Shown here: positions 16,519-62,228 of the stretch, one piece after another | Numbering within the stretch: the stretch's first letter is position 1 | Layout of the letters: each line of letters opens with the position of its first letter | Source: an uncultured bacterium | GTDB lineage: Bacteria > Omnitrophota > Omnitrophia > Omnitrophales > Aquincolibacteriaceae | DNA: 64,000 nucleotides | Direction of reading: 5' to 3' | Assembly (NCBI GenBank): GCA_964508905.1 | Contig: CAZDVO010000002.1 | Span: 46,330-110,329, forward strand | The notes under the pieces: generated by a model | What the model saw: only the letters and a program-made list of their open reading frames with translations | Database searches by the model: none | Told to the model about the DNA's origin: nothing | Translations under genes and position numbers: made by a program

Positions 16519-16588
16519 ATCTCATATCCGTTTTTCTCCTTTGATCGTCCATGTTTTTAAAACTAAAACACCGGGATTGCCGTCCCAA

Positions 16589-16870: not shown

Positions 16871-19800
16871 TTATGCCGCGATGGCGATGGAACGGGCAGC
16901 CTCGATAGCGGCCTCCACGACTTGGAGCGCCGTTAACGTCCGGGCAATACCCGCGATCTCACGATCCGTGACCACCACGATCTCCAGACCCAAGGAACCA
17001 GCCAGCAATTCGCCATAAGTCTTGGCATCCAGTTGCGAGGCGCCACTGATCCTCGTCGCAGTCGCGCGCGAGAGGTTACGGCCAGCCTGCTTCAAGCCGG
17101 CATCAAAGGCTTCTTCGATCGACGCGATAACGACCGCGCACTTGGTCATATCAAAGCCATATTGCGTCAAGAACGCCTTGGCGGAGGCCTCGTCAGCTTC
17201 ATTCTTCACCGCGATCGAGAGGTAGATATTGTCAGTCGATTTAAGCGATTTCGCGAAGGACTCAAGGCCCGCCTGATTGAATCCGTCCTGGAAGACATAT
17301 TTCGGAGCCTCAGCGCCCACGATCACGTCGGCATCAAGGCCCAAAGCCGCTTGCATCTTGGGTTCCGCCGCAAAATTCGAGATCACCTGCGTGAATTCGT
17401 TCTCGATCCCAAGAGCCTTCACGTGCTCCACCGTACGAGCGAGATCAAAACGCATCGCCTGCGAGGACGCAATACCCGCAACCATTCTCTGCGCCACAGG
17501 GCTCAACGCCGGCTTTTGCTGCCCAGCCATCTCCGGTGCGGGAGTTCCGAGCTTCTTTAATTCGTCCTCAATAGCCGCTTGGCGCGCCGCTTCAGCAGTC
17601 ACTGCAGGCCGCAACTCCGAGCGTTTCGTCTCAGTCTTCGCGGGAGCTTCAGTCTCGGTAGCAACCGGCAAAGGCGTGTAATCCGAGAGACGCTCCAACT
17701 CCGCCAAAAGCGCGGAAGCCTTGGGATGAATGACAAGCATCTTCGCGTTGGCCTCACGGATAGCTTTGGTCAGAGTTTCCCCTTCCGCCGGGACTTGCGC
17801 CAATTCACGGCCGGCCGACGCGGGATTCTTAACCGCACGAGCAAGCATGTCTCCAAGCCCCTTGATCTCATTGCCACGGTTCACATGAGGGTAGCCGGAA
17901 ATATCTTCAGGCAACCCCGCGAGATAGATCGCGTCAAGCATCAACTGCTCATCCGCCATTTTTTCAACATTCGGTTCATAAACCCTCAGCGCGGCGACCT
18001 GGAAATTTTCCGTTGAAGAACCCGTCTGCCACCAGAACGCCTGCGCCGTCGCCTTCACACGGGCGGTCAGCATGGGGCTTGTGACCATATAGATCCTCGG
18101 ATTTTCAACCGACGCGGGGATCTTCTCTCGGAGGATCTCCGCGGAATTCCGAAGATTGGCCTCCGTGTTCCGCGCGCGAGCTTCTTTCGTGATCATGCCG
18201 GCTGGAACACCTTCCGCCGTTAAAATATAAGCCATAATGTCCGCCTCGGTCTGCCACAGGGCGACCACATCCGAGGTTTCATTAAGCCCGTAATGCTCCA
18301 TAGCCGCCTTCCTAAGCGGAAGATAACCACGCCCTCGGCCACCCGTCACCACGATCGGCAACTGGGTCTTAAGAGCTTTCCACGTCGCGGCAAATCCTGT
18401 AAAAGTCCGCAGATCGGGGTTACCAAGGACTAAAAATCCATCGGCGGGCTTCGTTTGGAGATCATCCCCCTTCGAAAGATCATCCACCAGCTGCTGCATC
18501 TTCGGCACCATCACAGAACGAACGGCCGCGATCTCACGCGACTCAGAACGCCGCGTTCCGATCGCGGAAAGAATCGTTTGGGGAGCATTATCCTGCAATT
18601 CCGACCAACCGAGCGGAAACGTCTGGATCAGAGAAAGGGTTTCTTCTCCGGGCTTTTGCGTCGGTTTGAGATCGGCTCGCATGAGCTCCACCGAATTCAC
18701 AGCAACGGTACCGAATTCCGTATCCCGATTGGCGCGAACCTCGTCCATGAGCACCTTAAATTTTTCGCCGGTCACCGAATGCTGGAGCCGAAACAGTTTC
18801 GCATGGATAATGTGGCCGGATGATTTATCTTCGGCGTGGGGATTATCCGTAAAAGCTTGGTGCAACCCGGAACGAAGGCCGCCAAGATTTGACGGTTCAT
18901 CGACATAGCCTTGCGCGGTCACCGTACCATCTTTGGCGATCGTCAACCCTTTGTAGGTAACGCGGAACGGCATTATCCTGCCCGTTACCCCGCGGATCAC
19001 ATCCTGAATTTCGGCAGATTGATACGGCGCCATATCGATCACGCCGTTATACGTTGTGACAAAGGCAAAGATCGTGCTGTGAAGCTCACCCGTCCGGACG
19101 ACATCGGCATCAGTCAACTGAGCCGTTTGAATGATTCGTTCTGTCATCTTCCACAGATTATTCTGAACCGCGCCCTGCGGCACACGCATCAAGACAGGAA
19201 CTGTCGTCCCGTATCGCTGAGCGCCCTTTTCATCAAAATAATTTTTATGCGCCATGATCGCCGCCTCACTGATCGAACCCTGTGCTTCCGTTTCGGTAAA
19301 CATCCGGTCGTAATACCCCCTCAGCACCTTGGGATCCAACTCTGCCACCGTTTCCGCCAACCGCATCTCCGAGCGGGCGTTAAGCTGCACGTCTTTCCCC
19401 GGCGTCCTTGATTCAGAACGAGGTTGAACCATTTTGGGTTCACTAGTCTCGCTTTTTTTCACGTTCCCCTCGCCTGTCGAACCAATTCCATGCAGAGGCA
19501 CCGATGATTCCTTACCCGGCGCAACTGATTCTGGCACAACACGCGCTATCAGCATCAAAATGCCCGCGACTCCCGAAGCAATCGCGAAACCGATCCAGCC
19601 TCCAATCGAAAACCCGATCCCGCCAATCGCGGCGATTCTCGTAATCATCCTGATATATTTAGCCGATTGTTTTGAGCCAATAACAAGCCCCGCGACGATC
19701 ACAAAACCCACAATCGCCGCCACAACACTCCATCCAAGCACATGCCCCACAGCAGTAACAGGCACGAGAACCAAGACAGGCAAAGCAATCGAACCCAGAA

Positions 19801-22800: not shown

Positions 22801-25800
22801 CATTCGACGCCCCCAAGGCAAAGTCCTCTTCGACAAAACCCGCCCGGTCCCTCAACATCCGTTTATGAGTCGCTTTAAACTTGGCGTCTTTTAGAAGATT
22901 AGGATCCTGCCGCGCCGCCTCGGAAAAGAGGTCCTTATTGTCCTTGGAAGCCACCGCACGCAGAGCCTCCGTGATGGCCATAAGCATGTCCCTTTGAGAA
23001 ACTCGCTTGGAAGCAGCCTCAATCAGATGGGGAACATCCAATGTGGCGCCACCTTCAGCGGGAAGGAGTAGCTTCTTATTCAACTCGAGCCATTCTTCAG
23101 GCTTCAGATTTTCATTTTCGGCTTTGAGCCTCTCAGCTTCCTTTTTGACCGCATCGATGTCTGCAAAACCCGCCTGAACAATAAAGGCTGCCTGACGAAC
23201 GGCATTATTGTCATCAACAATGCTCTGGAGGTATCCCGCCCGTTCCAGCAGCATATCCCGCGCAACCGGGGAAACTCTAGCGCGGGCCAAAAGCGCCGCC
23301 TCGGGGTCCCCGGGAAGAATCTTCGCGAGGATGGCCTGATCCGTTGCCACAAGCCCCTTGAACAGGGCCCGGCTCTTCAGCACCTCAAGAGCAAGGAGAC
23401 CATTGAGGGGCCCCTTGGCCTGGAGGCGCGCAAGGAGCTTCGGATCGCCGTTCGCTTCAAGACTGAGGCGGATCGAGCTTTCTTCCAGCAACCGGTTGAG
23501 CTGCCGGAACAAAAAGCCGGAAAACACAAGAACCCTCGTGAAATAGGCACCAAACGGAAGTCCCGGTCGTGGCCGAACCATTTCCGCCGCGACCATGGTC
23601 AAAATAGTGTACTTTCCGAACATACGAACAAGTCCAGCAACCATTGAATTAAAAATAATCGTCCAGAATCCCGCCGCGTGGATCTTCGCTCCCATTTCCC
23701 AGAAAGCGGTCGAATGGTCCGTTTCATACCCGGTATTGAGCTGGGCCATCCCGACATCGGGCCGCCTGCTAAGCATGCGGATCAGGAACAGCATGATCCC
23801 GGCCGAAACATAGTTGCCGCCATCCAGCGTCGTCGTATGAAGCACCTGCGGCTCAAAAATATCCTTGCCGGTGACTTCATCCGTTTTGACCGCGGGCAGA
23901 TACTGGCCGAGCATCTGCGGGTCATCACGCAGCGACTGGCTATAAGGGACAAACGCGTTCCCCTCTCCAGGCTTGGCCATGCCGTTAAAGAACGGGATGT
24001 TATCAAACGGAAGATGCAGTTTAAGGACATTCGCCGGAAGCGGATTCCCGTGTTTGTCAGTCCCTCTCGTTTCGACCTGCTCCAGAACATAACTGGATCC
24101 AAGCAGGATCGTCCTTCCGAAGATGGTGACCTGATAATGCAGTTTGTTGATATCAACCCCGCGATTCGAGATCTGCCCGAGTTTCCGGCCCGCCAAACCG
24201 TCCTCACCATATCCCGTAAAGGCCCCCATCAAAAGGACGTTAGCGACCGGCTTGCGACCCGCACCGCGGTATATGACTTGCAACCGCTCGTATCCCGGAT
24301 GCACGCTCTTGTCAGCCTTATCCGTATATTCCAGCAACTCCCAATAAAGCTCCATACGGGCCTGCATTTTCTGGAAGAACTGTTCCATCGTCCCTCCGCC
24401 GGGCTCCTTGGCACCTTTGGTCTCAGCATAACTCCCCTTAACCTCGGGCCCGTTAGCCAACAGGATCGAGCGCTGGCTCTTGAAATTATTCCCGATCAGC
24501 TGGCGAACCATGGCTTCGACCGTCTCATTGATCTCGCGGCTGTCAAGACGCCACGCCTCAAACATAATATGTTTTTTGCCCTTGGGCATGTGCCCCGACA
24601 TATAGCCATTGATATCTTTGTATTGGAGAGTAGGATCGGCTTTAAGATCGACAATGGTCTCCGCAACAGCCTTTACCTCCTTGGCTTTTTTGGCTTTCTC
24701 CGCAGCTGTCAGATCGCCGTACATCCCGGTCTCAACTCGTCCATTTAATATCGCCGCCTCTATACTCTCTACCTGCTTAAGCACTTTCCCCGCGCCTTCC
24801 GAATCACCCGCCAAGTCCAGCCATTTCGCGTTTTCCTGAAGTTTAATAATCCGGTTCTTTTCTTTTCTGTAGTCCGCATATCCCGGCATGTCAAAGATCA
24901 GCCTGGCTCGGTTCATAACCTCATTAACCTTCTTATCCGAAAAATCTTTCTCTTCTTTTTCCGTTGGCGTGTCATACATAACACCACCGGATTTGTCTAT
25001 GTGAGAGAGAGTGATCATCGCTATCCAAACCACCATCGCAACGATGAACGCGGGCTGTGCGACAAGAAAACCGCCAATAGCGGTCAGAATCGCCGGTTTT
25101 GCCACCGCTGCAACAAAGCCCGCCATTGCCAAAAGAAATGTCAGGGGTTTCCACCCGGCCGTCAAATAAGCGATTGGATTATAAGCCCACTGCTTGAAGA
25201 GCGGGACATGCCAAACAACATACAAAGCTACAAATATGGGCACAGCCGCGACAGCATAGGGAGAGAGAGCCGCTAAGGACCAACCGATCATCAGAAAGGC
25301 CAGAAAATCGCGGAGAAACTCGTACGTCGCAAGACGCATCAGCGACAGTTTGGAACCTTTTTCGATCGTCCGGAGCGTCTGCGGTGAATGAGCAACGTCG
25401 TACCGAGCCGTGGTAACAGGAGTGGCGGAGCCCACCCCGGGGACCGCTTTTGCCGCCGTCATCGCCTGCTTTACCGACGCAAGATCCTGCTCCAAAGCCT
25501 TGAACTGATGCTCAACAGTCACGAGTTCGGCGGCAATTTCCGCGTCAGTCATTTTACTGAGTTCTGACCGTGCTTCCGAACGGCTAACAGCATTACGGCG
25601 TTTCTGCTGTTCCTTGATAAGTTCTTCGCGTTTGCTAAGAAGAGCGTCTTGGCGCTCAACGATTTCCGTTTTTTTTCGTTTAAGCCCGTTTTGTCTTCCA
25701 TAAACCGGCGACTGGAACCTGCGCTTGAGATAATTCTTCATGGCGAAGAAAGCCGCCAGAACAAAGGCAATCCAGGAGATGTTCCAGAGAGGCGCCTTCG

Positions 25801-40800: not shown

Positions 40801-43800
40801 CGACAAGGGCCAAGGCCCCCGGGATAGCAATGATCGCAAGCGAGGCCCCCAAAGCAACGGTCGTTACGTTAAAAAGAAGATTCAGCCCTGAAAAAATGAG
40901 ATGGCTGACAAGATCCACCGTATACTGTTCCAGCGGAGTTTCCCGGGCCGTATTCCACAACCCCTCATAGCTTTCTTTTAATTTCATCTTCGTAATATTG
41001 TCCGCCTGGATCCGCTTCAGCACGAACCTCTTGAAAAGCAGGATCCCGATAAAAATCGCGAACGCAGCCACAACGATCAGTCCAACTGTCGCCAGAGCTG
41101 CGACAGAAGCCGTCGTCACAGAACCCGTCCCGGCGAGCGCGACGATCTTCGTCAGAAAAGCCGGTACCCAAGCCTGGATCCCTGCCGCGATGCTACCGAC
41201 CGAAAGGGATTTGGTTAAAATGCCCGTAAAGATCCCGATCCAAACGGAAGAAATAGCCGTAAAACCGATCGCAATACGGGCGATCCTTCCAGGACGTAGC
41301 GGCGCACGAGGCGTAGGCATCTCTATTTTGGGGGCTTCCGAATCGACAAGGGCCTTTCTCGCGGCATTCGCGGCGGACGCCCTCACCTGACTTAAGGACA
41401 AGGCAAGCTCACGGGATACCCGGCTCCGGAAACCGCCTAATTTGGTCTGGTCGGACTTGGCAACAAGCCCGGATCCTAGAAAATATTCTTTCTGGATCTG
41501 ATCGGCCGTTGCGTTATAGTTGCTGCGCGCCACATCGACAGCATCCGGAAGCATCTTCCGCACGGCCGCCTCAGCCTGCGCCAAAAGAATGGCCTGAATG
41601 CGGGCATTCACAAATGCCTCGCCGGCAGCGTTCTTGGAACGGCTCAGACAAAGTTGCACGAAATCTTTCCTCACAGAATCACTCATCCCGGCAAGCAGTC
41701 CCTCTGGAAAAACAAGATCCAGGATGACAGCCGCAAGGGTCTCGTCATTCTTTGTTTCGATCGCTTCCTGCAAACGGGCAAGAGCTTCGCCCTCGTTTTT
41801 GATCTTGGAGGTTTTCCGTTCCTGGATATTCTTCAGGATCTGCTTTGCTTTCAGCCCTTTTGCTCCGGGAAGCAGATCCGTCCGCACAACGTGGAGCCAC
41901 GTCCTAAAGTTGGCGCTTTCGGTCAGCTCCCTTGCAGCGTTGACCGCTGCCGCCACCACCGCGTCATGGTCATCCCCTTCTTCGTCCATCGCATCAAAAG
42001 CTCCGATGCTCGCATAGGCCGCGTCATCCGTTTCTTCCTGCTGGGCGTCCGCCTGCATCTTTTCTGCCAGCATCGTCCTTTGTAATGCAAGAAGAGCACT
42101 TTCGATCCCGGTCAATCCGATCCCACGTTCAAAATTGCGCAGACGGCGAGGAGACCCGTCCTGGTTCGTCCGTCCTTCCCACCAGCGCTCCCACCAACCT
42201 TCCCCCTTCATACCCATTGCAAGTTCCGCCTCCCGGGCCAACTGCTCCGCGCTCGGATCCCAATCCTTGACCGAACCATCCGCATTCCTCGGAGCAGAGC
42301 GCAATCTGGCGATCAAGTCGAGCAGAGGCTTCCTGTTTTCTTCGGAAAGTTCACGGCCAAATTCTTCGAGGCTCGAAATGGCCAGATAAGTAAACACATG
42401 GCCAAAAGTCCCGCCGCGGCCGACACGGCCGATCAGCTGATCCATGATGATCTTCAGGGTATGGGGACGGGTCAGGTGCAGCGTCAAGCCTTTGATCAAA
42501 TTGCCATCGGCATCAATGATCTTTTCAAAGATCTCAACATTGATACCACGTGTCAGCGTCGCGTCGATCAAAAGAATATGCCCCTTACGACCCGCCCGCT
42601 CCAGCATCGCCTTGCGCACGCTGGGAGCATCCGAATCGCGGTAGATCTCAACGGTGACTTTCAACCCTTGCTCGCTGGCCGCTTTTTCAATAGCGTCCTT
42701 GATCCCGGCTTGATCTTTTGCGTCTGCGTCAACAAGATGGAAGCCTTCGACCTGGGAAGCGCTCAAAGCATTAGCCACAAGAGCCTTGTTCCTCTGCGCG
42801 ATCTCGCTTGCGTTCCTTTCCTCAACAGTCGCAAGGCCTTCTTCCCCGCCAAAAACTTTCGGCGGCGCGATCTCCTTCGTATAGTGGAAGAGGCCATCAA
42901 CGTTGTGCGTTTTCATTTTTCTTCCGCGCGCGGTCAGCTTGGCGTCCAACTCATCGCCTCCGGTCGCGGTCATCAGCACATTCCCGGCAAAACACGACAA
43001 CCCCATCATCTGAAGCATGCTAAGCCGGCTCGTCGTCCGCGATCCCTGAAGACGCGTAAGCCCCGCTTTAGCGCGCAACGCATTCTGTAAATCTCCCAAA
43101 TGCGTCCCTGCCATAGCATGCTCGTTACTGTCAAACGGGATCACATCCTCTTTCCCGTGAACCTGGCCCTTGATATAGAAACGGAAAACCCTTCTTCCCT
43201 GATACTCCGCGCCCGTTTCCGGATTATTTTTATCCGTGTAACATTCATGCGCGATCAGTTCCGCCTGGATCATCGCGATCCAGCGGTCGCGGCTGACAAA
43301 ACGAGGATCGATCGTCCCCGCTTTTACAAGTTCGTCATACCGCTTATTGGCCAGCGCTAACCCCGTGAAGAAGTTCAATTCGACTTTCGCATGCTGGTCA
43401 TTGATCACGTAGTTTTTGGTATTCACGTCCACCGACGGTTTGGAAGAATTCGCACGCAAGCCACGGGCCAGATCAGAAGCGTGACTTTCAGCCAGCAAGA
43501 TCGCATTCGCCTGAGCAATGACTCCGGCGGAAACAATCGCTTTGCTCGGATCCGTCACAATGTACTGGTCCGCTTCATCCAGGACGCTTGCAACCGTTCC
43601 CCGATTGGCCGCAGCATTGGCAAAACGGCGGCCGGCCCTGCCCTGGAAATAGAATTGATAGCCGTCGTAGCGAGAATAAACGACTTTAGCGTTCTTGATG
43701 ACGTAATCGATGGGATCTTCGTACGAATTATCGAATTTTCCAGTATGAGACGAAGCGACTTCCACAAGTTTCTCCTCATCTCCGGATTTGACCGCCTTCC

Positions 43801-46800
43801 ACGCGTGAGCAACGCCTTTCACATCAACCGTAAGCGTCACGAACATCCCGAGCTTGGCATCCCAGATCCAAGCGAATTTGTTTCCCGATTCGTCCGTAGT
43901 CAGATACCCCACGGTATGGGCCCCGGGAGCTTTCGAAAAAGCCGCCTGACATTCAATGGCGCCGGCAACAGCGTTCACATCACTATTCGTCTCAACAAAA
44001 GCCTTCCGGTCCGGTTCCGATGCAACCCAGGCATAAACCGTCGCGATGCCGATGATCGTTTTACCGGCGCCGGTTGCGGCATAGTTCAGGATATCTTCGA
44101 TCGCCGCCTTCTCGCCTTTTGGCGCACTCTTGATCTTGTCGCTATTGCCTTTCAATATTTCGATATTTGCCAAAACAGCTTCAACCTGTCCGAGGGTCGG
44201 ATTCTTGGATTTAGCTTCCAGCTTCGCAAGGCGTTCCGCTTCAGCCTGGCTCTTGCCTTCCGTCAGATATTTTTTAACCAATTGAGCCTGCTCATATTCC
44301 AAAGTCGCCGTTTGAATTCCAACGTAGATCTGTTCAACCAGCTTATTCCCTTTAACAAGAGGATGATTTTGATCGATCACCTGGTTCAGATCCCTGACAT
44401 CGCGGGCAACGGGTTTTGCGGATTCTTCGGTGGTGGGCGCAACTGCGGCGGGAGCTGTGACGGTCTGGCGAGCGGCATCGCGCTCCTGGATATTGCGGGC
44501 GACGATCTCAAGCCCTTCCTTTTTAAGCGCCATCGTATAGGTATTGACAGGGATATTGACACCCTGTTGTCGATATCCATCGATCAAAGCCAACTGAGCC
44601 GTGATCTTCGCTGAACTAAAACGAACCAGAATGTCCCGGCGAAGTTTCGCCTGATCTTCCCCCTCGAGGACCGTACCCAAAGCCTGAACTCTCGCATCGA
44701 GCGTCGCAAACGTTCCAGTTGCAGCATCAAATCCAAATCTCAAGAAACGGATATCCCCGGCAAAACCGCGTTTTTCTAACGCGTCGATCTTCGCCGCTAA
44801 ATCAGAACTTTTAAGAACTCGTTTATAAAATCCCTCGGCAACGGAAAGCTTCTCCGCAGGGGTCGAGAGGATCCGCGGAAGGTTCGCCGTAATTTCGGCA
44901 GGAATTCCATACTTCGTCGTCAAAAGTTGGGCGTTCTCCGTAGCCCGCTTCGCTTCAAGCTCCCTTTGAAATGCGTCGGCGGCAATGGGCCCCGCCTCAA
45001 CCGCCACACCGCCAGGCAGCTGCAGGGCAGAAGTCCCCTCCACCGGAGCTACCACGCGCGATTCAGAGCGGGCAGCCTTCTTGACCGAATCGGGAACCTG
45101 GTCGGCATCCATCATATAGAAGGAAAGGACCTGATCCGTGGCCGGCATTGAGATCGACTTCAACGTGCTACGCAACGACGCCGCGACTTCCGATGTCTTG
45201 ACCCCATTCCCCTTGGCATCCAGCGAGAAGGCCAGATACGGGGCATCCCTCTTCGAGCCATCCTCCATCGGGATCATGAGAACCGTGTGTCCCCCAACCT
45301 TCACGACCCGGGAAGGTTTGAACTTTTTGACAAAAACATCAAATTGAGCGCGGTAATCCGCGGGCAGCGTAGCCACCGCGGCCTGCAGCTCCTGATAAGC
45401 CTTCCCTTTATCCGCAGCTGACAGGATCGAGATCGCCGCGACGAGCGGGAAATAAAGCATGTCGTCGCCTTTAAAGGCCGAGAAGTCTACCTTCCGGCCG
45501 AGCATACGCCACGCCGCCAACTGGAACCGCGGATCGTTCAGCGTCACAGCCTTGGGCTGCAGGAACGCCTCGGAAAGAACTTTCTCGATCGGAAGCGGCG
45601 TTTCGCGCAGCGAGGCGTCATAAAGCGCGTTTTCCCTCTTTTTATCGATCGCCTTGGTGATGCGAGGGGCGACTACTATATAAGAAAGCCCCTTCTCCTG
45701 AAGATACTTCTCAATCCCAGGCGTATGGAAACCGCCTGTGACGATGGCGGATAACTTCTGCCCGGTGGCAAGGGTTTTCTCGACCGCTCGCTCGATCAGC
45801 ACCCGGTCGCGTTCGAGAGCGGCTTTATAAAAGCGCTCCACACGCGGCAGGTCCTGATCGAGGGTCTTCACTTGGGACGGCAATCCGTAGGTGAAGTGGT
45901 ATTGCTTCATGAGCGGTGCGAGAAAACTTACGAACGTTTCGGACTTGAACTCGTCCTGGTAGGTGTAATAGAACTCGGCGTCCTGCTTGGTCAGGCTGAA
46001 ATCGAACATCTTGCAATAGATGTCATGGATACGAAGGATATGGTCCAGCCGGATCTGCTCCTGCGTCATGAAAAGCTTGGCCTTGACGGTCTTTTCGAGA
46101 AATTCGATCTCGTCAAAGATCGAGACGTCGATCGCATCATAAAGCTTCATGTACTGGATATACGCCATGACGTTCGCATGCTTGACCGCGAGGTCTTCCC
46201 CTCCTGACTGGGCCACGCTGATGCCGCGGATCTCCTGCTCCAGATAACCGTAATAAGCAGCTCGCTTCATTTTCTTCATACGGAAGTGGACGGTATTCGT
46301 CAAGAACCGCGCCAGCTTCTCGCGCGGAAGGAAGCGCTTCAGATCATTGACAAGGGCCTCGGTGTCCTGATCGGCTTTATCAAAATCGACTTTCCTCTCA
46401 AGATCAACCAACTCGAGAAGCGAGTGCATGCCCGGATATTCATCCAAGGCGATCTGCTGTTTGCGGCCAAGGTCGACGAGATAACGGACATAGGCGACCA
46501 TTTCCGGGCCACCCTCCTGGAATGAAGCCCGGCGGCGGATCAGATCCCGCATTTCTTCAGAGAACACGAACCGTCCGACATCCTCCATGGCTTTTTTGAG
46601 TTCGACGAGAACCGCTTCGTCGCGATCCTTGAACTCAAGAGCTTCCACATACGCAGTACGGTTCTCTTCGTAGAGGTCCCGGTCTTCAACGCCATAAAGC
46701 ATCATAACCGGCTTATCCACAACCGCCAGATATTCCGGCCCCGTCAAACGGCCTTCACGGAGGAAGTAATCGGCCACGTTGCGGCGGGCTTCTTTGTTCG

Positions 46801-47230
46801 GGAAAAAAGAGAAAAGATCCGTGTTCAGTTCACCGGAAGCGCCCTCAAGGCTCACGAGCCCCAGCTGATGTTTTTCCGAAAAGTAGCGGAGGATATTGGC
46901 GATATTGCGTTGGGCTTCCTCGTTGATATGCGCATCCTGGACATGCAGAATGATCTGGTCCCCCGTTCCCTTGAATGTGGTCTTGACCGTACCGTAGCTG
47001 TCGGGAAGATCAGGGCGATCGATCAGCGCAAGAGGCGCCTGAGGGGCAACTGTTTCAAATGAGGAAAGGGCCTCCGGCTTGGGCGCTGCGGCATAGGCTT
47101 TATTAATACCGCCATCCCAGACGATCGAGGTAAAGGTGAACACACAGACCGTGAGAAATGCTACGGTCCTAAGCCATGGTTTGAAGCTGTGTGTTTGCCA
47201 ACTGATCATCGGATTGCCGTCCTCTCTCAC
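16871..47230 (-). CDS. Giant multidomain membrane protein, 10,119 aa (30.4 kb): N-terminal anchor plus conserved module, SecA-like DEAD ATPase, three TM blocks, coiled-coil/low-complexity regions, DUF218 domain, C-terminal unclassified domain
   Basis: A single uninterrupted ORF in the supplied track. The track start is GTG at 47230; an ATG with GAGAGGA RBS 10 nt upstream lies at 47209 (MISWQTHSFKPWLRTVAFLTVCVFTFTSIVW, a TM anchor). Stop is TAA at 16871. Domain motifs are detailed in the sub-features. Such size plus a SecA-like domain plus many TM segments corresponds to the reported features of Omnitrophota giant genes. Confidence 0.9.
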   Translation of the reverse strand: MREDGNPMISWQTHSFKPWLRTVAFLTVCVFTFTSIVWDGGINKAYAAAPKPEALSSFETVAPQAPLALIDRPDLPDSYGTVKTTFKGTGDQIILHVQDAHINEEAQRNIANILRYFSEKHQLGLVSLEGASGELNTDLFSFFPNKEARRNVADYFLREGRLTGPEYLAVVDKPVMMLYGVEDRDLYEENRTAYVEALEFKDRDEAVLVELKKAMEDVGRFVFSEEMRDLIRRRASFQEGGPEMVAYVRYLVDLGRKQQIALDEYPGMHSLLELVDLERKVDFDKADQDTEALVNDLKRFLPREKLARFLTNTVHFRMKKMKRAAYYGYLEQEIRGISVAQSGGEDLAVKHANVMAYIQYMKLYDAIDVSIFDEIEFLEKTVKAKLFMTQEQIRLDHILRIHDIYCKMFDFSLTKQDAEFYYTYQDEFKSETFVSFLAPLMKQYHFTYGLPSQVKTLDQDLPRVERFYKAALERDRVLIERAVEKTLATGQKLSAIVTGGFHTPGIEKYLQEKGLSYIVVAPRITKAIDKKRENALYDASLRETPLPIEKVLSEAFLQPKAVTLNDPRFQLAAWRMLGRKVDFSAFKGDDMLYFPLVAAISILSAADKGKAYQELQAAVATLPADYRAQFDVFVKKFKPSRVVKVGGHTVLMIPMEDGSKRDAPYLAFSLDAKGNGVKTSEVAASLRSTLKSISMPATDQVLSFYMMDADQVPDSVKKAARSESRVVAPVEGTSALQLPGGVAVEAGPIAADAFQRELEAKRATENAQLLTTKYGIPAEITANLPRILSTPAEKLSVAEGFYKRVLKSSDLAAKIDALEKRGFAGDIRFLRFGFDAATGTFATLDARVQALGTVLEGEDQAKLRRDILVRFSSAKITAQLALIDGYRQQGVNIPVNTYTMALKKEGLEIVARNIQERDAARQTVTAPAAVAPTTEESAKPVARDVRDLNQVIDQNHPLVKGNKLVEQIYVGIQTATLEYEQAQLVKKYLTEGKSQAEAERLAKLEAKSKNPTLGQVEAVLANIEILKGNSDKIKSAPKGEKAAIEDILNYAATGAGKTIIGIATVYAWVASEPDRKAFVETNSDVNAVAGAIECQAAFSKAPGAHTVGYLTTDESGNKFAWIWDAKLGMFVTLTVDVKGVAHAWKAVKSGDEEKLVEVASSHTGKFDNSYEDPIDYVIKNAKVVYSRYDGYQFYFQGRAGRRFANAAANRGTVASVLDEADQYIVTDPSKAIVSAGVIAQANAILLAESHASDLARGLRANSSKPSVDVNTKNYVINDQHAKVELNFFTGLALANKRYDELVKAGTIDPRFVSRDRWIAMIQAELIAHECYTDKNNPETGAEYQGRRVFRFYIKGQVHGKEDVIPFDSNEHAMAGTHLGDLQNALRAKAGLTRLQGSRTTSRLSMLQMMGLSCFAGNVLMTATGGDELDAKLTARGRKMKTHNVDGLFHYTKEIAPPKVFGGEEGLATVEERNASEIAQRNKALVANALSASQVEGFHLVDADAKDQAGIKDAIEKAASEQGLKVTVEIYRDSDAPSVRKAMLERAGRKGHILLIDATLTRGINVEIFEKIIDADGNLIKGLTLHLTRPHTLKIIMDQLIGRVGRGGTFGHVFTYLAISSLEEFGRELSEENRKPLLDLIARLRSAPRNADGSVKDWDPSAEQLAREAELAMGMKGEGWWERWWEGRTNQDGSPRRLRNFERGIGLTGIESALLALQRTMLAEKMQADAQQEETDDAAYASIGAFDAMDEEGDDHDAVVAAAVNAARELTESANFRTWLHVVRTDLLPGAKGLKAKQILKNIQERKTSKIKNEGEALARLQEAIETKNDETLAAVILDLVFPEGLLAGMSDSVRKDFVQLCLSRSKNAAGEAFVNARIQAILLAQAEAAVRKMLPDAVDVARSNYNATADQIQKEYFLGSGLVAKSDQTKLGGFRSRVSRELALSLSQVRASAANAARKALVDSEAPKIEMPTPRAPLRPGRIARIAIGFTAISSVWIGIFTGILTKSLSVGSIAAGIQAWVPAFLTKIVALAGTGSVTTASVAALATVGLIVVAAFAIFIGILLFKRFVLKRIQADNITKMKLKESYEGLWNTARETPLEQYTVDLVSHLIFSGLNLLFNVTTVALGASLAIIAIPGALALVGVAGGTVVALGSVAAFALVMGVLAVVFAAGLFFFHRALKAHYAKMGRPVEVKTMTIQPDWWSISFPEFFGTILGRPVHFKPVQINIEKTAIIKNGIAVGAAVALFSILSGSLLVFGVLGVALLAGVWYGGNVLQKKLFTSPQNMASFQEAQTLYGGTPGKRGTYIGAGIVAVTGLVIALGVPAGAVLGTLAALLSVFYFGNTLLQNGAQGKAADKNAEKETYLYAKDTKLLSAIRKLTNRTEQTSFEPMILSMIVAPLITVIYAGIVGGTWAFGSLSFVSAIAATWPILLILAACVVAYFALNALYAKLTGKTAAVYTYKPGEDTSKVFGAFSAASMFAGVAAASVSSGSEMVQTMNAQTQARLEAAEQKMGPVLQARTPEQIALIEKNENEAALAALAKASETATPAAEKPVSAAEAAQAKIAALDAAETGLRVAVRNSIHERALGDQGLVLDGIRDAVAQGMSLENVIRDTHNSWFRDTLFGDLRRLSRNLDGLENAIGVYYRAYQDHQAVPAELRRGFVAESAHDLGSFVSRNAKGLFNWVCSGPVATRELIHAIATKPETSKAVEETPEQKQAWKSVTEWVESLGLSSAHREGLLEAMKDINFTDQYDAGAYVGRKVDGAYRIFVQYRAGDFTWVPGRTTHLYEIEVPEALIPHLKAYFVKGWNSSWDRETGRTPSKFELIRERGEVSPYFHREVKAALPAPVKPLKLASKSPVAAVPTATEPVVTAPVVATVPEEATSFPTALDRGERGVLEIQTQVVETPAVVAASKVEKPQEVKKTEVKEDELVGVVATALSAPGTGVGAPPPPVEDLSAAMAGQTAPVQGKIAIPEKPEPAIASRSLDAVKASVAGPAGLVGEIRSKVAAETVGEERDAALDGFDEFVVRTEGIIRSDNDRAQFHARATRLRQSIRNDKDRQMVEDDLDVMARKMVGVDVPAEFADVEPLLVDLAPKTQTIASPHADATLSLTGLYDAAKPLPVAIATSPAVVAGAAVVSNAFKPAGEAAIAPMEPLLADISTSGTVGLGETTAKEAADQAAENFETLMSKGASTKTEDAVIEGKVTPEVPSGFNVGMALFDETYQRPSVLALDRDADLAAQYSSDYKKFNAFVGAGFNAVLTSHKNQTKTTSTSTEEKTGEREVDIGDGSGLTQLEDYTYTETSTTTTVSSSNRYNALEGSVSAGLRTGSDILKQDQRLAAEEGQKRRDSRIAFVQLIKQKVFSLEEIASINARLAKISQTKARYHGILQKRQQALGAYHASVPVLKRQLDDSLKNIEIEEDALIKARNYHARHLVGLMGKDVSKWMANSDYQTFVKTMDFEKIRSLGLYAERADAGAKALLEQMKYYIQRREAELDTVPGARWSLTIPEVNLALGTESGLTAQLNIFALETAWSSRDYQLDKKNQADVIAAKTNVMHRLADMMHDGISKLYELRSLQQHVKNLEAQAQVDVLVADALLNSRSRESQRDMDPISAADKYLLLTDQIESAKGELQKLQDAEKDLLTTLDAIQGQMTALAENDQKLAGEVGFDVTGRQFREAIARGHSQWTTELNDQADAVYQSYIGEAAVAKDEEGQSLRKAAFAHEMLKNSGLLVASRYKALADKLDQVYQEWVRLSAYLNAGFGFSAKNPGATSFVVNGGIGLDVLVLSFTQSAAEYSKAAAEGRSASYLRDVTNRAQQQLQQIIEQLGFLEGQIAGLQRNVQTSQKMLEEVAHKVAIRLAERDHRVDASAHRILAEIQQGNVGELTKLGVDSETVRLLAEVQKGNVDSVAALQPRLAPLIEEKLWVELAGTAGKLLEQKIALSATKDNRAKAQLLLNKLSSSDLHPVAIDIARAEVETHLNEPDYQAELKKLTNPYFRYLDANGVFLDTAEADLESMTKIIENFLPGMDEVLADKEKAFAKEKSDFDREQAAFNAKKPSVFKNKQEEKKWADRAADLAEKAQAVAKREQAVKQLKGTRERFSNARYKAMYLSKVAALNAEGKMAKTDQRDAMRDLLEDLVGATEGYLTSEYLLEKMFNLWSYESRDSWYEGIRQLLDLIGPEGTSVLGYTGRITAIHSAFLNVEKAWSLNKEPLNIRGGFSYQKSGGTSSGKSTTLGFGGIFSHLKRLFAGPSDDARRNAAFLLAEGSRGIMDRAKAQVKENQDTLALRGKLGVLDSRIKLYEDIKQQFVEWRDRYEPTPGALRSIVSRLRSVLGNDRTTDEIYALNVEQLDARIRADANSIRELEASLLSRGFSPRQMRSGAFYTASANKQNESAALIRDQLSEIGRESYSAQIASLNTLVGTMLKQSTFGTSPYTSAASLAQSPFYRDFGVVNQFLNAPSGLPGSDGNRFAVVNFTTSSILGTPKKTFMLMMQYKESEAGTDKKGSELAVSEQTRGVVAAISHMRVMNRFKKILAAKTLAPQGLEDILGTARVEHGVKGESLSRLSRIESMETGNAAIEAIGKLWSEVKGLSSDEEKRQKMIEGIDQLLRIENASIKDDLKALKKTAGEADISFEVVEGVDLSKAGNLEALQSDEATRANLRTLLNKEFVKMLGQDRLGSFVKFGFSHAPYQSDLSEGEPYLGVGATYTLYDSHLSAIKKFWSNREGIEKLFAKQANQDLRNELEDFLADREDLEKEVAKRRESLESAAESYHLALQRSRQFGYVDAEIDLAFRYMNELDAYESAVYAYWNASRKLIESAAANGIKLDYTAGKKDMVELLADAIPSWLEDETEGDDIEAKYLASEKPVLPVIKGTGTRSATFAIDEGLEKETPTKNARTNQALDKLIAALGSKVPVTGLLSPEEKAGLELEQANARKLLTRIFERVAGRYGRKDVPAWIEEIAAAYKDLEDNKAFDRTGFMEVGLGEETWGNLFGQCFMIGPEGSKLLQDSGVDFNKLAFALFVNDLGHISMTRGEPGDRARITESIARDLPDAMKALERYRHRPQDSYSLRSPVEGAEALTLVLYRAFGGESVKDKNGNPLGFDQILNDAEHRRAFVRVAPEFNLNNVFSGVVGHEINKDTWVTGWQDAAKYLSISLGRYDKGTGEVIPREIPVDDPQYMAYIMAQNIANILAHPRPVLPAELSANATPQEREAYNAAKAKVSDHDKLMEQSAYLTARFAFKISQSEHLRPKEEDIKDTVYLRLKALAGQKQEDYGVDPDTKRLVLIKDVRSWLSNPPQEMSVAEHSRLMKALPEILKSTRSGGIKDPVTGGVATLESIQIRMKAVREAVMEGLFNSMAVSYVNDVLYGAGHDAGENRDKWLAKSIEDTIDPKTGEVIKGRLSLTEDRLRLENELRGKPELVKSISELAHKPEGYKATPREKYNDDRNIRGIVSGLAMEILGETGDEIDPAIKQYMGAIQKEIDLLGEELTRVSDEKKPEIQGRLDAKKAELQRYEDANAKRVADYKLFNSLPEDKKIQHLVELWQIMSDLRPSATALLGTLSNDNPNDVSMLRLWAASVQGDIQPKYQPGAGGFEDAEHWQKWQDTPKKERLERMQKRLHIMKVLKDRFAEKGITIKLKDSKYTAVPERGLGVGSLMSSAMEYLGEIDPAEKIDKAIEALQKDIKALEAEAERAVPETSVQEEPAKVSEPVVPLKSEPVKTSAWDKFTDILAVASSFAGNLVFGLNAYGDTVPALATQGLVGASAKAVEAAVSNKPNLPQSGETRGLKGESRVPSAQLREKRAELANLQQIRNKIKADQDLFLGKTGDKRYMSVNGQIAEGRIARIVGLAVIMKDIRFAVEQLVGPLNDGSPSDMGMLRSMATFIQGDIQSQYMHAAGGFDNEDDWAETEKKTPEKRQELLMGRLEVASRMNDALKNLGVVFDLKGERSAEMLRKGEDIGFLLSVSQALISGDVLLGEMFDEKGNLKDSDKVWMLFAVMRTPQAKTMLDNYLTETNRDEYLAKSLVSKIGDRTSLAKELAVFLGDSGRIDRSKTIAENLKEADLILSRREKIYKVSRADGMSPEISVKSDDLGAEDEALEDLKAKSGLGEALTPEIYYSLVSKVLDSRKVAGQSLKGRFPVAFWMLPSEKRQLMDKIAEISEIPYALNDAKTWVAGFLLTPGGIDLKNTQPVIKEVSRRVEIEMFLQAANMLYRTQALNPGELAAFSRVVMLEEQKILREQNERNAATEQPVSEAVRKTQEEEKLKPMLRTGHLLKLYGLAEAALNGKTINGNPYEGANDRITLVKDQMNKYGRMLNGDAWKPVDEEWVKANHKGWATEKIFGKISRILEAQELGAPHFEMTPESTPDYLYKWIKDAAVMDAVIYQSQGRFPPNEVLDALIQSERDGSDVIPVYKTETSLIQNLPQWSRLEKGRNNYLLQKYGSQQFWDADLRVLGEVTGADGRPLTVELSDTSRVPVDLNDVRWVRSAYRTVYRTDIGDDDLGIPAAKEVLRTLWFVEKIARLDHQLKNITFDGKNVAVSGEAISAIRDEFMIGSEKARNAFRRAVYGASKDAALLDKTEVQAQFKVYMNAWAEEFIRMKAELQTLSVKENAASREDLEMSRKNIQSERKTRVAEYAKKYAGKNYEPVHKDAMKEVETSWAEISSKVKGLTPFRSTEKAVVASQMIRNGYTAREILLMDHYILPELLKGHGLEGKDIDRLKDSDLKDKNLKAKDLKAKLRYRSREILERAEAGLLFAVNRNAGGVKTTLETLDTEALAGTVKYQLKDFEGVQTNENVIREKFSELNVYSDDVLKREREIKRIAESVLDRDVSTGSLSAWFAAASNLKTAVLVSGAKDPDMEKILYEADSLWNLGLAASPQRVQDKSSMDALAVINGTIGWIFDRGTDSGPYAATPTGSKRDAATPAGSNRATLESEPTREKMLKALDAAAFDDAREKIERRIEEMLKSGALTPLDLKELNGLALQRYQSLVDVNAKAKKDGLQSKDLPKPHEVSPLTILLVLDMENPDPVKRIGLFELLFPKVKEEGKDLLRADAQVNGHYAGASRRSDELLIDKYAPVPDSAMTHLISGLRIPAFQVHDYRFPGYGVSGVMLSHLFNFDGQESPVSKALGIKDSKAPLWNISWIAFVLAAFFAMKNYLKRRFQSPVYGRQNGLKRKKTEIVERQDALLSKREELIKEQQKRRNAVSRSEARSELSKMTDAEIAAELVTVEHQFKALEQDLASVKQAMTAAKAVPGVGSATPVTTARYDVAHSPQTLRTIEKGSKLSLMRLATYEFLRDFLAFLMIGWSLAALSPYAVAAVPIFVALYVVWHVPLFKQWAYNPIAYLTAGWKPLTFLLAMAGFVAAVAKPAILTAIGGFLVAQPAFIVAMVVWIAMITLSHIDKSGGVMYDTPTEKEEKDFSDKKVNEVMNRARLIFDMPGYADYRKEKNRIIKLQENAKWLDLAGDSEGAGKVLKQVESIEAAILNGRVETGMYGDLTAAEKAKKAKEVKAVAETIVDLKADPTLQYKDINGYMSGHMPKGKKHIMFEAWRLDSREINETVEAMVRQLIGNNFKSQRSILLANGPEVKGSYAETKGAKEPGGGTMEQFFQKMQARMELYWELLEYTDKADKSVHPGYERLQVIYRGAGRKPVANVLLMGAFTGYGEDGLAGRKLGQISNRGVDINKLHYQVTIFGRTILLGSSYVLEQVETRGTDKHGNPLPANVLKLHLPFDNIPFFNGMAKPGEGNAFVPYSQSLRDDPQMLGQYLPAVKTDEVTGKDIFEPQVLHTTTLDGGNYVSAGIMLFLIRMLSRRPDVGMAQLNTGYETDHSTAFWEMGAKIHAAGFWTIIFNSMVAGLVRMFGKYTILTMVAAEMVRPRPGLPFGAYFTRVLVFSGFLFRQLNRLLEESSIRLSLEANGDPKLLARLQAKGPLNGLLALEVLKSRALFKGLVATDQAILAKILPGDPEAALLARARVSPVARDMLLERAGYLQSIVDDNNAVRQAAFIVQAGFADIDAVKKEAERLKAENENLKPEEWLELNKKLLLPAEGGATLDVPHLIEAASKRVSQRDMLMAITEALRAVASKDNKDLFSEAARQDPNLLKDAKFKATHKRMLRDRAGFVEEDFALGASNVPALFAVLQANGEVNNAILASLGIKRTAAGAVDFSGVDRKKLADAVTKILNDKDQFKVFYVKFLAQDSAIADRLAPEVKGLLERAKAQDAVVGLRDIVAEENAIKQAEDMAAAGYTDLQGVKAELTKVDKATPALNDSEWEALNRSLMAALYDGYIEKRQTSSLDRLLEPAMAKTVTELENILKEKDPKTLMKLLSRAGVTNKTELRKKIAEEKGKVEGFKAGNLKIEDFEMVLLNRKLLGVLCGAKKDDAKVATISIFTQEDLEDAMHAFSGLPSKYNGEDEMVTYTPTDTYVQAEYAAEHKEELKDQKEELERKHANNPRAAHREVKGRPFDADAIRVLPKEIWDDVAETGAPLPGVKTALALVAGREGIIDDKLPSMPAQNPQSDKWQIINDEPTDELYERGVFALTPQTDFFDSFPRDGLNIGHKWFATLAIMALAAFVPGFIGVVGVYAAMVQTLVVLSLLIGMPFLGVLFNGLVAPVGFKVDFLRPLTVWNWFRVKGRFLEQAFYDMAIIAAEKVISGANYVNRVLNVFDWYKRKVRRHDFIKYGEVGTADPAPAGIDLSKAPNFSKNLQDPYVRRGLMVGFSFLAVLFGIMFKVGLLSLVAVISVWGVGLVGAAVGFLVALFVFIIPGVKADIVDGKLLKSIAGSKAPNMQDAKLKFFEVFGANELYKSKDLGLMKKFGLMLRFYGYAVVKTAPASLRLVKDFSFFKNRNLFQKNNPKPLFELEWYRSYMNHLILNSVALIAVCAFLPFLVQFVPLFWLMLFSVMALFFVAAPLVNWATGLVIEQKEGDVGSARRAVKIALGLFGVAAIVFTIFLFNSVAMQMALSVFFEKVMANSFFVAASGNLVEGMRGPLSPLAQGNAPLLMFVQTFLLGGTVLAIILSLIFAVWWFTFYAPAAKLKAEAQKVAKPENALAAKKEKVTLRGWIKDRITAVKAFGVNIKTFVASVRTEKKKADQEKIKRKWAGINLPAWGIGFMVVFQKIEAAKREKILKNLLGSIALPVLVLVPVTAVGHVLGWSVVAAIVGFVIVAGLVIGSKQSAKYIRMITRIAAIGGIGFSIGGWIGFAIASGVAGILMLIARVVPESVAPGKESSVPLHGIGSTGEGNVKKSETSEPKMVQPRSESRTPGKDVQLNARSEMRLAETVAELDPKVLRGYYDRMFTETEAQGSISEAAIMAHKNYFDEKGAQRYGTTVPVLMRVPQGAVQNNLWKMTERIIQTAQLTDADVVRTGELHSTIFAFVTTYNGVIDMAPYQSAEIQDVIRGVTGRIMPFRVTYKGLTIAKDGTVTAQGYVDEPSNLGGLRSGLHQAFTDNPHAEDKSSGHIIHAKLFRLQHSVTGEKFKVLMDEVRANRDTEFGTVAVNSVELMRADLKPTQKPGEETLSLIQTFPLGWSELQDNAPQTILSAIGTRRSESREIAAVRSVMVPKMQQLVDDLSKGDDLQTKPADGFLVLGNPDLRTFTGFAATWKALKTQLPIVVTGGRGRGYLPLRKAAMEHYGLNETSDVVALWQTEADIMAYILTAEGVPAGMITKEARARNTEANLRNSAEILREKIPASVENPRIYMVTSPMLTARVKATAQAFWWQTGSSTENFQVAALRVYEPNVEKMADEQLMLDAIYLAGLPEDISGYPHVNRGNEIKGLGDMLARAVKNPASAGRELAQVPAEGETLTKAIREANAKMLVIHPKASALLAELERLSDYTPLPVATETEAPAKTETKRSELRPAVTAEAARQAAIEDELKKLGTPAPEMAGQQKPALSPVAQRMVAGIASSQAMRFDLARTVEHVKALGIENEFTQVISNFAAEPKMQAALGLDADVIVGAEAPKYVFQDGFNQAGLESFAKSLKSTDNIYLSIAVKNEADEASAKAFLTQYGFDMTKCAVVIASIEEAFDAGLKQAGRNLSRATATRISGASQLDAKTYGELLAGSLGLEIVVVTDREIAGIARTLTALQVVEAAIEAARSIAIAA
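17980..18440 (-). other. DUF218 (YdcF/ElyC/SanA-like) domain near C-terminus of the 10,119-aa protein
   Basis: GFLVLGNPDLRTFTGFAATWKALKTQLPIVVTGGRGRG...ETSDVVALWQTEADIMAYILTAEGVPAGMITKEARARNTEANLRNSAEILREKIP...RIYMVTSPMLTARVKATAQAF. The same family is present in the 2,830-aa paralogue. Confidence 0.5.
19550..21560 (-). other. Transmembrane block 3 (C-terminal multi-helix region)
   Basis: WFATLAIMALAAFVPGFIGVVGVYAAMVQTLVVLSLLIGMPFLGVLFNGLV...MVGFSFLAVLFGIMFKVGLLSLVAVISVWGVGLVGAAVGFLVALFVFIIPGV...ALPVLVLVPVTAVGHVLGWSVVAAIVGFVIVAGLVIG...IGGIGFSIGGWIGFAIASGVAGILMLIARV. Confidence 0.6.
24990..25800 (-). other. Transmembrane block 2
   Basis: LWNISWIAFVLAAFFAMKNYL, then after a ~110-aa charged spacer FLAFLMIGWSLAALSPYAVAAVPIFVALYVVWHVPLF...LTFLLAMAGFVAAVAKPAILTAIGGFLVAQPAFIVAMVVWIAMITL. 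Confidence 0.55.
26415..26474 (-). repeat. In-frame 30-nt tandem duplication inside giant ORF
   Basis: acttccggccggcgtggccgcatcacgttt followed by acttccggtcggcgtggccgcataaggtcc. Encodes AATPTGSKRD / AATPAGSNRA in ...PYAATPTGSKRDAATPAGSNRATLE. Confidence 0.7.
39780..41300 (-). other. Transmembrane block 1 (about 12-14 predicted hydrophobic helices)
   Basis: IARIAIGFTAISSVWIGIFTGIL...LIVVAAFAIFIGILLF...LAIIAIPGALALVGVAGGTVVALGSVAAFALVMGVLAVVFAAGLFFF...ILLILAACVVAYFALNAL: long runs of hydrophobic residues spaced by short loops. Confidence 0.6.
42300..44200 (-). other. SecA-like DEAD-box motor ATPase domain (NBD1/NBD2-like) embedded in giant protein
   Basis: Walker A: NYAATGAGKTIIGIATVYAWVA (SecA: [20 protein letters not shown]), DNA ~44041-44080. 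DEAD: ASVLDEADQYIVTDPSKAIVSAG (SecA: [20 protein letters not shown]). MTGT region: LMTATGGDELD. NBD2: ILLIDATLTRGINVEI (SecA: VTIATNMAGRGTDI). GLTLHLTRPHTLKIIMDQLIGRVGRGGTFGHVFTYL (SecA: [36 protein letters not shown]), DNA ~42410-42490. Confidence 0.75.
45550..47230 (-). other. N-terminal conserved module (paralogous to 14900-16518)
   Basis: See alignment in the 14900-16518 feature. The GTxH-like (ILHVQDAH) and GGFHTPG motifs are faintly reminiscent of the TraB/GumN/ChaN family. Confidence 0.55.
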
Positions 47231-47620
47231 AGTCGATAAAGTTATTCCAAGTACTACAAATTCGCCTATCTGATCGGGTATAAAACTTAGTTTAAAGCCT
47301 TATAAACCTCAATAGAAATATACCCGATTACCCCATGAAGGTCAAGAAAACCTAAAAAATTTTTAATGACGTAACTTATTGTCATACTACAACTTGTATC
47401 GCGACAACAAAATTATTTGAATTTAAGCAAACTCATTAGAACAATTCATAGCAATAAAATCAAAAAAAATTACGTCTGTATTTGCATATAAAATTTTATC
47501 TGGTTAAGAAGTTTTGATGCGTTAATAAAAAGTTTTTTAAAATAAATGCCTTTTAACTATTGTTTTGATGCCCCTACATAGAGGTGACGATGAGAAGAAA
47601 TGAGATCAAAAAAAAAGAGC
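47231..47620. promoter_or_regulatory. Strongly AT-rich island immediately upstream of the giant gene (putative promoter / nucleoid-protein binding region)
   Basis: Composition drops from ~60% GC to roughly 25-30% GC over ~390 bp (e.g. aaaattatttgaatttaagcaaactcattagaacaattcatagcaataaaatcaaaaaaaattacg), with A- and T-tracts including a 9-A run at 47616-47624. No convincing ORF. Confidence 0.45.
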
Positions 47621-47867
47621 ACTCCCCTATTCGGAGAATCAACACCACGGGAGAAATATTTCATGACAGAAGGACAGGTGATGCCCATGAATATCTCGAG
47701 GATAAAAAAAAGAGAGCGGACGAATGATAAAGCCGGCGCCACACGAAACATCAAAATCCCGACGGAACGGATCAGACACCTACATCGAAAAGAGATATCA
47801 CGACCGCTAAAACCGCCGGGATATTTTGGACCTACCCTGACTTTTATTTATTTCTAAATGGTCGTCA

Positions 47868-47918: not shown

Positions 47919-48053
47919 AAACTACCGTTATGGAACAGAAATGAAAAGTTTGGACTGGCCCATTTAACCTTAGATTTTTCGAAAGAGAAATGGACCCGCA
48001 CTTGCCTCCGATTCATTTTCAGAACGGCGACAAGTGCTGGCCCAGTTTCCAAT

Positions 48054-48091: not shown

Positions 48092-48099
48092 ATGATAAC

Positions 48100-60446: not shown

Positions 60447-62228
<1,782 letters not shown>

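Follow-up and report, generated by a model that had tools for sequence, protein, structure and literature searches.

A probable single 30-kb gene of an Omnitrophota bacterium encoding a mosaic membrane protein with a divergent SecA-type ATPase

Proteins of more than 30,000 amino acids (aa) have been described in the bacterial phylum Omnitrophota. They contain SecA domains without scaffold/wing, and export of the giant protein itself by these SecA-like domains was proposed (West-Roberts et al. 2023, bioRxiv 10.1101/2023.11.21.568195). A further catalogue lists 5,761 proteins with 10,000 aa or more, and 46% of the catalogued long Omnitrophota proteins are predicted to be transmembrane-only (Nielsen & Lui 2026, bioRxiv 10.64898/2026.06.07.730766). 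In some samples 24-28% of the Omnitrophota contigs carry a protein that reaches 10,000 aa. Published proteins of this size have a mean of about 22 membrane helices, and 13 of 14 published giants have type II/IV secretion or glycoside hydrolase genes nearby. Here we analyse a giant open reading frame (ORF) located at 16871-47230 on the minus strand of a 64,000-nucleotide stretch of contig CAZDVO010000002.1 (assembly GCA_964508905.1), the whole of which is called the window. We are confident that this 30-kb frame represents one real gene from an Omnitrophota bacterium, and that it encodes a polytopic inner-membrane protein of about 10,100 aa which is built as a mosaic of modules. The explanation that we favour overall, with modest confidence, is a genuine giant gene whose SecA-type motor would export the giant polypeptide.

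The protein shares many features with the published Omnitrophota giants: the phylum, one ORF reaching 10,000 aa or more, about 25-30 membrane helices, divergent SecA_DEAD and PP_bind regions without scaffold/wing, and a mostly unannotatable, near-unique sequence. It would fit a published 20-protein cluster with SecA_DEAD architecture (Nielsen & Lui 2026). Nearly all relatives of its N-terminal head module, and the nearest relative of its SecA tile, are labelled Omnitrophota or Omnitrophica, and synteny at the locus extends to three contigs that were assembled independently. An initial annotation, made from the sequence alone, had recognized the Omnitrophota giant-type architecture, which is supported by these relatives and by the SecA module without scaffold/wing. 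It had also called genes of this size very rare in bacteria, which does not apply within Omnitrophota. Since Omnitrophota proteins of at least 10,000 aa are catalogued in thousands, one more example is not surprising in itself. New are a TIKI/Ere-like head family, a conserved unit of motor plus membrane block, and variants with and without the SecA cassette. To be noted, the protein also differs from the published giants. It is far below the >30,000-aa threshold of West-Roberts et al. 2023, it has a TIKI/Ere-like head whereas the published heads are C39 or S8 peptidases, and it has no secretion, pilus or glycoside hydrolase neighbours within the window. TIKI, TraB and ChaN are mentioned in neither of the two studies. 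Neither the Archaeovorin set (glycosyltransferase, glycoside hydrolase, methyltransferase, peptidase, NUDIX) nor the Dockerin plus TSP3 set was found by Pfam and NCBIfam searches of all tiles.

A single reading frame of 30 kb

The frame is free of stop codons over 16874-47299, and the window contains no N. All window genes lie on the minus strand, as does every window feature for which coordinates are given below. Counted from a GTG, the ORF encodes 10,119 aa; this numbering is used throughout, and counts from the ATG at codon 8 (47209) are lower by 7 (e.g. H101 = H94). The product of 10,112 aa starting at this ATG is likelier, because the ATG is preceded by GAGAGAGGA and coincides with the N-termini of the orthologues P0037 and L087, which are MISWQTHSFKPW. 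For random codons of the same composition, the probability of 10,119 stop-free codons is about 1e-203. Codon usage was scored per 500-aa tile in three frames with a model trained on the housekeeping genes of the window. The log-likelihood for frame 0 is +0.22 to +0.41 bits per codon in 20 of 20 tiles, and it is negative for both other frames. No internal repeats are detected by self-BLAST of the giant protein, and the residue entropy is 3.7-4.1 bits in each 250-aa tile. Repeat expansion and low complexity are therefore ruled out as the origin of the length, and the low-complexity stretches described in the initial annotation are not borne out. A Kyte-Doolittle scan for membrane helices gives a total of about 25-30 helices, comprising one N-terminal helix and three blocks. 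Thus, the elements that the annotation had read from the letters, namely one uninterrupted frame (whose minus strand is added here), an N-terminal anchor with a conserved module, a SecA-like DEAD ATPase, three transmembrane blocks and a DUF218 domain near the C-terminus, were all recovered.

A comparison with relatives on other contigs shows that the ORF is collinear with several independent genes, each over a different part. The syntenic relatives L002/L003, L004 and L005 come from independently assembled contigs and share the upstream genes. Their homology to the giant ends at aa ~760 in L002, whose head region is 66% identical to the giant (aa 2-762), and at aa ~690 in L004, with nothing detectable further. 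In L005 (P0037), L082 and L008 it extends to aa ~2387-2535 at 41-47% identity and includes the head, the SecA-like module and membrane block 1; the ORFs of L005 and L082 are collinear single ORFs matching aa 1-2525. Downstream of this, L025 shares aa 3221-4407, L040 aa 3212-4600 and L071 aa 3221-5068, at 28-42% identity. Both L025 and L040 carry the N-module, a distant SecA-like module, a membrane block and then the body, in the order found in the giant. In particular, L087, the 86.6-kb metagenome contig Ga0182027_10000292 of JGI, carries one ORF, 7,201 aa or longer (3869-25471 of that contig). It is collinear with aa 2-749 of the giant at 66% identity and then with aa 3221-5397, 5939-7195, 7265-7405, 7563-7910 and 8402-8754 at 28-36%. 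The stretch of the window gene at aa ~750-3220, which contains the SecA cassette, is absent from the otherwise collinear L087. Judged from these alignments, the gene is a mosaic: whether a relative has the cassette (within aa ~750-3220) does not depend on the body that it carries. The occurrence of the same body with and without the cassette bears on whether the motor exports its own polypeptide.

An artefact would offer another explanation of the long frame, either by chimeric assembly or lost stop codons that fused several genes or by a gene in decay. Some observations would fit it. L002 and L003 have an in-frame TAG after codon 973 of the giant gene (10778-10783 in L002), with the frame reopening one codon on, and L004 carries several shorter ORFs. 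Independent collinear support ends at aa 8754, so that the final 1,365 aa lie outside it, and aa ~2535-3220 is bridged by the module order in L025 and L040 only. The TAG may mark a true gene boundary or reflect an error or recoding. Against the artefact stand the uniform, host-like codon usage in one frame over 30 kb, the chance probability given above, and the ORFs of L005, L082, L025, L040, L071 and L087. The latter are independent and cover aa 1-2525 and 3221-8754, which makes a chimera or gene fusion very unlikely for these two parts. In addition, 31 of 40 loci of the family have an ORF that stays open beyond 3,900 aa. We therefore hold an artefact to be extremely improbable. Collinear orthologues of this kind are cheap evidence for real ORFs over assembly artefacts, and the similarity of tiles to other giant genes, on which the initial annotation had staked its reading, is found in them. 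The L002 contig also contains a scaffold gap of 10 N at 12476-12486.

The conserved head and the SecA-type ATPase

The protein begins with a hydrophobic helix at aa 19-37 (47120-47176), which is signal- or anchor-like by hydropathy. It is preceded by K/R residues and followed by AYA|AA, is conserved across the homologues and is helical in the AlphaFold2 (AF2) model. The head module follows at aa ~68-580 (45491-47029), with an alpha/beta core like that of TIKI, TraB, ChaN and erythromycin esterase and a helical insert of about 290 aa. A parallel beta-sheet flanked by helices forms the core in the AF2 model, which has a mean predicted local distance difference test score (pLDDT) of 82.9. The invariant residues include D99-x-H101, E129, R474 and H502, which are D92, H94, E122, R467 and H495 when counted from the ATG. 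A longer list of invariant residues, in the latter numbering, has Q91, H94, E122, G123, E175, Y180, R467, the motif GGFH (492-495), P515 and Y530. D92, H94, E122 and H495 show little or no variation among 13-32 homologues. In the TIKI/Ere superfamily, RRSP has an acid-x-His/Glu/His set and Bcr135 a His-Glu pair, with a spacing of 28 residues (PMC6254334); the distance from His to Glu in the head is likewise 28 residues. The head thus resembles this superfamily (RRSP, EreC, Bcr135, HopBA1) in the acid-x-His pair, the Glu at +28, the distal His, and the RD and GGFH motifs, but its core is split by the insert and Asp replaces the first Glu. RRSP is a further parallel as a module within the very large multi-domain MARTX toxins, as the head is within the giant. 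The head of the window protein has no Pfam hit, two of 28 homologues match PF04187 (ChaN) with a best E-value of 3.6e-6, and a head profile found nothing among PDB sequences. The head is likely to have a TIKI/TraB/Ere-type fold with an intact D-x-H…E…H set. An extension at aa ~581-760 (44951-45490) is common to L002, L087 and other close relatives.

We found 35 homologues of the head, nearly all from Omnitrophota metagenome-assembled genomes and mostly annotated as partial. A scan of the GTDB species-representative genomes gave 454 head-encoding loci; the best 80 are nearly all labelled Omnitrophota and often occur several per genome. Forty head loci had at least 3,000 codons available, and in 31 of them the ORF that starts with the head is still open where the fetched DNA ends (at ~3,900 aa). 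Therefore, the head marks a large family of giant genes. It provides a recognizable and, from its conserved motifs, probably catalytic domain that marks hundreds of giant-gene loci. The family is multi-copy within genomes; 2-3 separate head loci are found for example in C24_metabat.bin.98 (L038, L054, L069) and nzgw332 (L052, L076).

The ATPase is located at aa 1011-1660 (42251-44200) and consists of NBD1, a PPXD-like insert, motif III and NBD2. NBD1 has the motifs AATGAGKT at 1051 and VLDEAD at 1218, motif III is MTATG at ~1419, and NBD2 carries TRGIN and QLIGRVGRGG. All SF2 motifs I, II, III, V and VI are present and are conserved in relatives down to 16-27% identity. With the single sequence, phmmer against the PDB reaches SecA only below the threshold (E ~0.09), with motifs II, V and VI in alignment. 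When 1.84 billion representative proteins were scanned in full with HMMER, three were retrieved, and none of them is a canonical SecA. The three are P0001, an Omnitrophota fragment which is the nearest relative of the SecA tile (63% identical) and passes the SecA_DEAD gathering score; P0037, a protein of 2,691 aa that aligns to aa 8-2535 of the giant at 47% identity; and P0038, which is 27% identical. Word-indexed homologue searches with the SecA tile and the cassette returned one fragment only, P0001. A profile of four sequences gives 20 hits in the PDB, all of them SecA (best E 3.7e-12). It aligns motif I, motif II with the PPXD, and NBD2, and covers SecA residues 157-360. After addition of the SecA-like modules from eight further head loci, the 11-sequence profile reaches SecA with E 1.3e-71; outside SecA, its best hit is a DEAD-box helicase (3e-4). 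Pfam matches among the 11 family members are SecA_DEAD in seven, P-loop_SecA in six and SecA_PP_bind in six. The scaffold/wing domain SecA_SW was found in 0 of 11, its sole trace being a weak second stretch of the family profile to residues 726-836 of 3din (E 0.2).

From these profile comparisons, the ATPase is of SecA type and very divergent; the PPXD of the window copy is seen by profile only. It resembles SecA in the Walker A/B motifs of NBD1, in an insert of about 200 aa which separates motifs II and III and can be aligned with the PPXD, in an NBD2 with the motif VI QLxGRxGRxG, and in having SecA structures as the best hits of its family profile. It differs in that neither SecA_SW nor the C-terminal tail is detected in the modules of the giant family, and in that it is embedded at aa ~1011-1660 of a protein of ten thousand residues, where it is fused by a linker of ~300 aa to its own block of about 10 helices. 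This membrane block 1 extends over aa ~1986-2489 (39764-41275) by hydropathy. A block of 8-11 helices follows the ATPase in all 10 ATPase-bearing relatives, starting 200-350 aa downstream, and no hydrophobic segment lies between the two in these 10 relatives. That the block persists even where the ATPases share only 16-27% identity speaks for a functional unit of motor plus membrane. The complete cassette of SecA module and membrane block comprises aa ~938-2535 (39626-44419), with 41-47% identity to L005/P0037, L082 and L008.

Proposed export of the polypeptide and a possible cytoplasmic scaffold

In the favoured explanation, which is the most economical one and follows West-Roberts et al. 2023, the SecA-like motor would be anchored by its own helix block and would use ATP and the PPXD clamp to push long hydrophilic stretches of the giant polypeptide across the cytoplasmic membrane. 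It may act on its own body or on that of partner giants, for instance the motorless paralogue encoded next to it. The N-terminal TIKI/Ere-type hydrolase might serve as a processing peptidase or esterase for the protein or its partner, by analogy with the C39 and S8 heads known from other giants and with RRSP as part of MARTX toxins. The outcome would be a huge scaffold embedded in the envelope. This mechanistic part is tentative, and we consider it doubtful taken by itself.

Several points weigh against it. In none of the relatives is there a hydrophobic segment between the N-terminal helix and the ATPase, which places head and motor on one side of the membrane, and the apparent N-in character of the N-terminal helix, as predicted, conflicts with a cytoplasmic ATPase. 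L087 has no SecA-like module and no block 1, while its other membrane blocks match; it combines head and body without the motor, which is therefore not indispensable in cis for the body. The SecA tile of the window gives no Pfam match for the copy itself, and about 60% of the giant protein has no assignable fold. Structure prediction followed by fold search, which the initial annotation had named for the tiles, succeeded in part. The head gave a good model, as described above, but the AF2 prediction of the SecA tile from four sequences has a pLDDT of 43.5 and is unusable, so that no fold search was made with it. The Foldseek search of the head model against the PDB found nothing significant (best EreC, E 0.37), probably because the helical insert splits the core; for this reason the fold of the head is graded as likely and not as certain. 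A possible further membrane helix at aa 588-606, behind the head, would have settled the topology but was rejected for lack of conservation in the homologues.

The topology can also be read differently. The protein may be a scaffold of the transmembrane-only class on the cytoplasmic face, tethered by its helix blocks and carrying enzymes, namely the TIKI/Ere-like hydrolase, the 2H-like domain and DUF218. Its motor would then export other proteins in trans, possibly the neighbouring ORF that resembles a surface protein, and would not thread its own body. This reading accommodates an ATPase that must be cytoplasmic and is separated from the head by no membrane segment. It is also consistent with the retention of the body without the motor in L087, with a cytoplasmic enzyme, a (d)CMP kinase, embedded in the adjacent paralogue, and with the 46% of transmembrane-only proteins cited above. 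On the other hand, the N-terminal helix resembles a Sec signal or an N-in anchor, blocks of about 10, 5 and 11 helices exceed what tethering needs, and nothing points to a substrate in trans. We regard such a scaffold as rather unlikely.

A bolder version of the export reading is that the head, the SecA-type motor and the block of 8-11 helices together form a self-contained, undescribed machine for auto-export and processing, fused to interchangeable cargo bodies. This is distinctly unlikely in our judgement. If true, it would represent a new cis-acting secretion route for polypeptides of several thousand residues, with bodies swapped between lineages by recombination.

Body, C-terminal domains and neighbouring genes

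The body of about 6,000 aa has no recognizable domains, yet other giant genes share it in conserved, collinear form, and it includes two membrane blocks. Its 'dark' module at aa 3221-5397 (31040-37570) has 28-44% identity to L025, L040, L071 and L087, and no Pfam or PDB sequence match was found for aa 3221-5068. A second conserved stretch, aa 5939-7195 (25646-29416), is 28% identical to L087. Membrane block 2 with 4-5 helices is found at aa ~7146-7406 (25013-25795) and has a matching block at the same position in L087. The beginning of membrane block 3 (aa ~8577-9231, 19538-21502, ~11 helices) is conserved in L087 as well. Pfam searches of overlapping tiles across the giant ORF gave only the DUF218 and AKAP7-type 2H matches described below, and NCBIfam added none. 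No credible hit for the body came from Pfam and NCBIfam searches of ten 1,000-aa tiles with lenient thresholds, or from phmmer against the PDB with aa 2501-10119. Exact 8-mer scans of genomes with aa 764-5762 and of metagenomes with aa 5120-10119 found no close relatives. A TolC/OEP-like nature of aa 3221-5068 was tried and rejected: the hhalign probability is 0.5% against E. coli TolC and 0.2% against an Omnitrophota TolC-like ORF, and there is no Pfam OEP hit.

Two domains are recognized towards the C-terminus. A 2H-phosphoesterase-like region at aa 9349-9520 (18671-19186) matches Pfam AKAP7_NLS near its cut-off (23.8-25.4 bits against 24.4); its first HxT motif is HSTI (9384) and the second is degenerate, HAKL. 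The DUF218 domain at aa 9618-9737 (18020-18379) matches PF02698 with E 1.4e-12 and 48.1-50.3 bits, above the gathering cut-off of 27.6. In this respect the domain is like the DUF218 proteins YdcF, ElyC and SanA, and it differs from them by its position behind the 11-helix block and the 2H-like domain of a giant protein. ElyC and SanA are linked to envelope biogenesis in E. coli. The DUF218 stretch of the giant has a paralogous counterpart in the ORF directly downstream.

The window begins, in gene order, with housekeeping and lipid-metabolism genes, and the full order is M16 peptidase, Rpe, LepA, signal peptidase I, two SPOR proteins, GNAT, YajQ, cNMP-patatin, thiolase, an acyl-CoA-ligase-like protein, an alpha/beta hydrolase, tRNA-Ala(CGC) at 48258-48330, a spacer and the giant gene. 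The giant gene is followed by an ORF of 2,854 aa, NadE, and an ORF of at least 2,069 aa which runs off the left edge. The 2,854-aa ORF (8024-16588) is the paralogue mentioned above. It has the same head module, with an N-terminus that is 24% identical to aa 14-537 of the giant, followed by HEAT repeats, a (d)CMP kinase domain and DUF218. The kinase domain scores 171 bits against TIGR00017, for which the equivalog cut-off is 135.6. Here a large membrane protein seems to contain a housekeeping-type enzyme.

The initial annotation had named a proposed role of such giants in prey attachment and cell-wall digestion. A surface machine that attaches to prey cells and digests their walls would fit the phylum and the architecture of many membrane helices with a divergent SecA_DEAD. 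A large surface-protein-like ORF with carbohydrate-binding-type domains, 9 kb downstream, would fit it too. However, no glycoside or peptidoglycan hydrolase, dockerin, TSP3, lectin or adhesin domain was found in any tile, and the detected enzymes (2H-like, DUF218, TIKI/Ere-like) are not of wall-degrading types. Furthermore, no type II/IV secretion, pilus or glycoside hydrolase genes are found among the neighbours in the 64-kb window, unlike for 13 of the 14 published giants. The predatory role gains no support from the protein or from its window neighbours, and we consider it improbable.

The ORF at the left edge (3-6209) has a signal peptide and four OmpL47-type beta-barrel domains. It also matches CHB_HEX_C, Glucodextran_B, ILEI and HYR, and it has no TIKI-like head. 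Its domain matches suggest a surface protein or an adhesin. Upstream of the giant gene, the block of the cNMP-binding patatin-like phospholipase (53362-55395), thiolase, AMP-binding ligase and S33 hydrolase is also found in L002 and L004. It is kept upstream of the giant in several Omnitrophota genomes despite differing gene bodies. Between tRNA-Ala(CGC) and the giant gene lies an AT-richer spacer of about 1 kb (47231-48330, GC content 0.47), which includes a terminator-like hairpin at 47639-47621. A sigma-70-like promoter match (TTGACC-17-TATATT, 10 of 12 positions, 47317-47345) sits in this spacer about 90-110 nucleotides upstream of the giant start and is a match to the consensus only. The exact LepA of the window (60447-62228) is recorded only in a 5.5-kb Logan contig from run ERR4519282, a run that probably contains reads suited to a check of the assembly.

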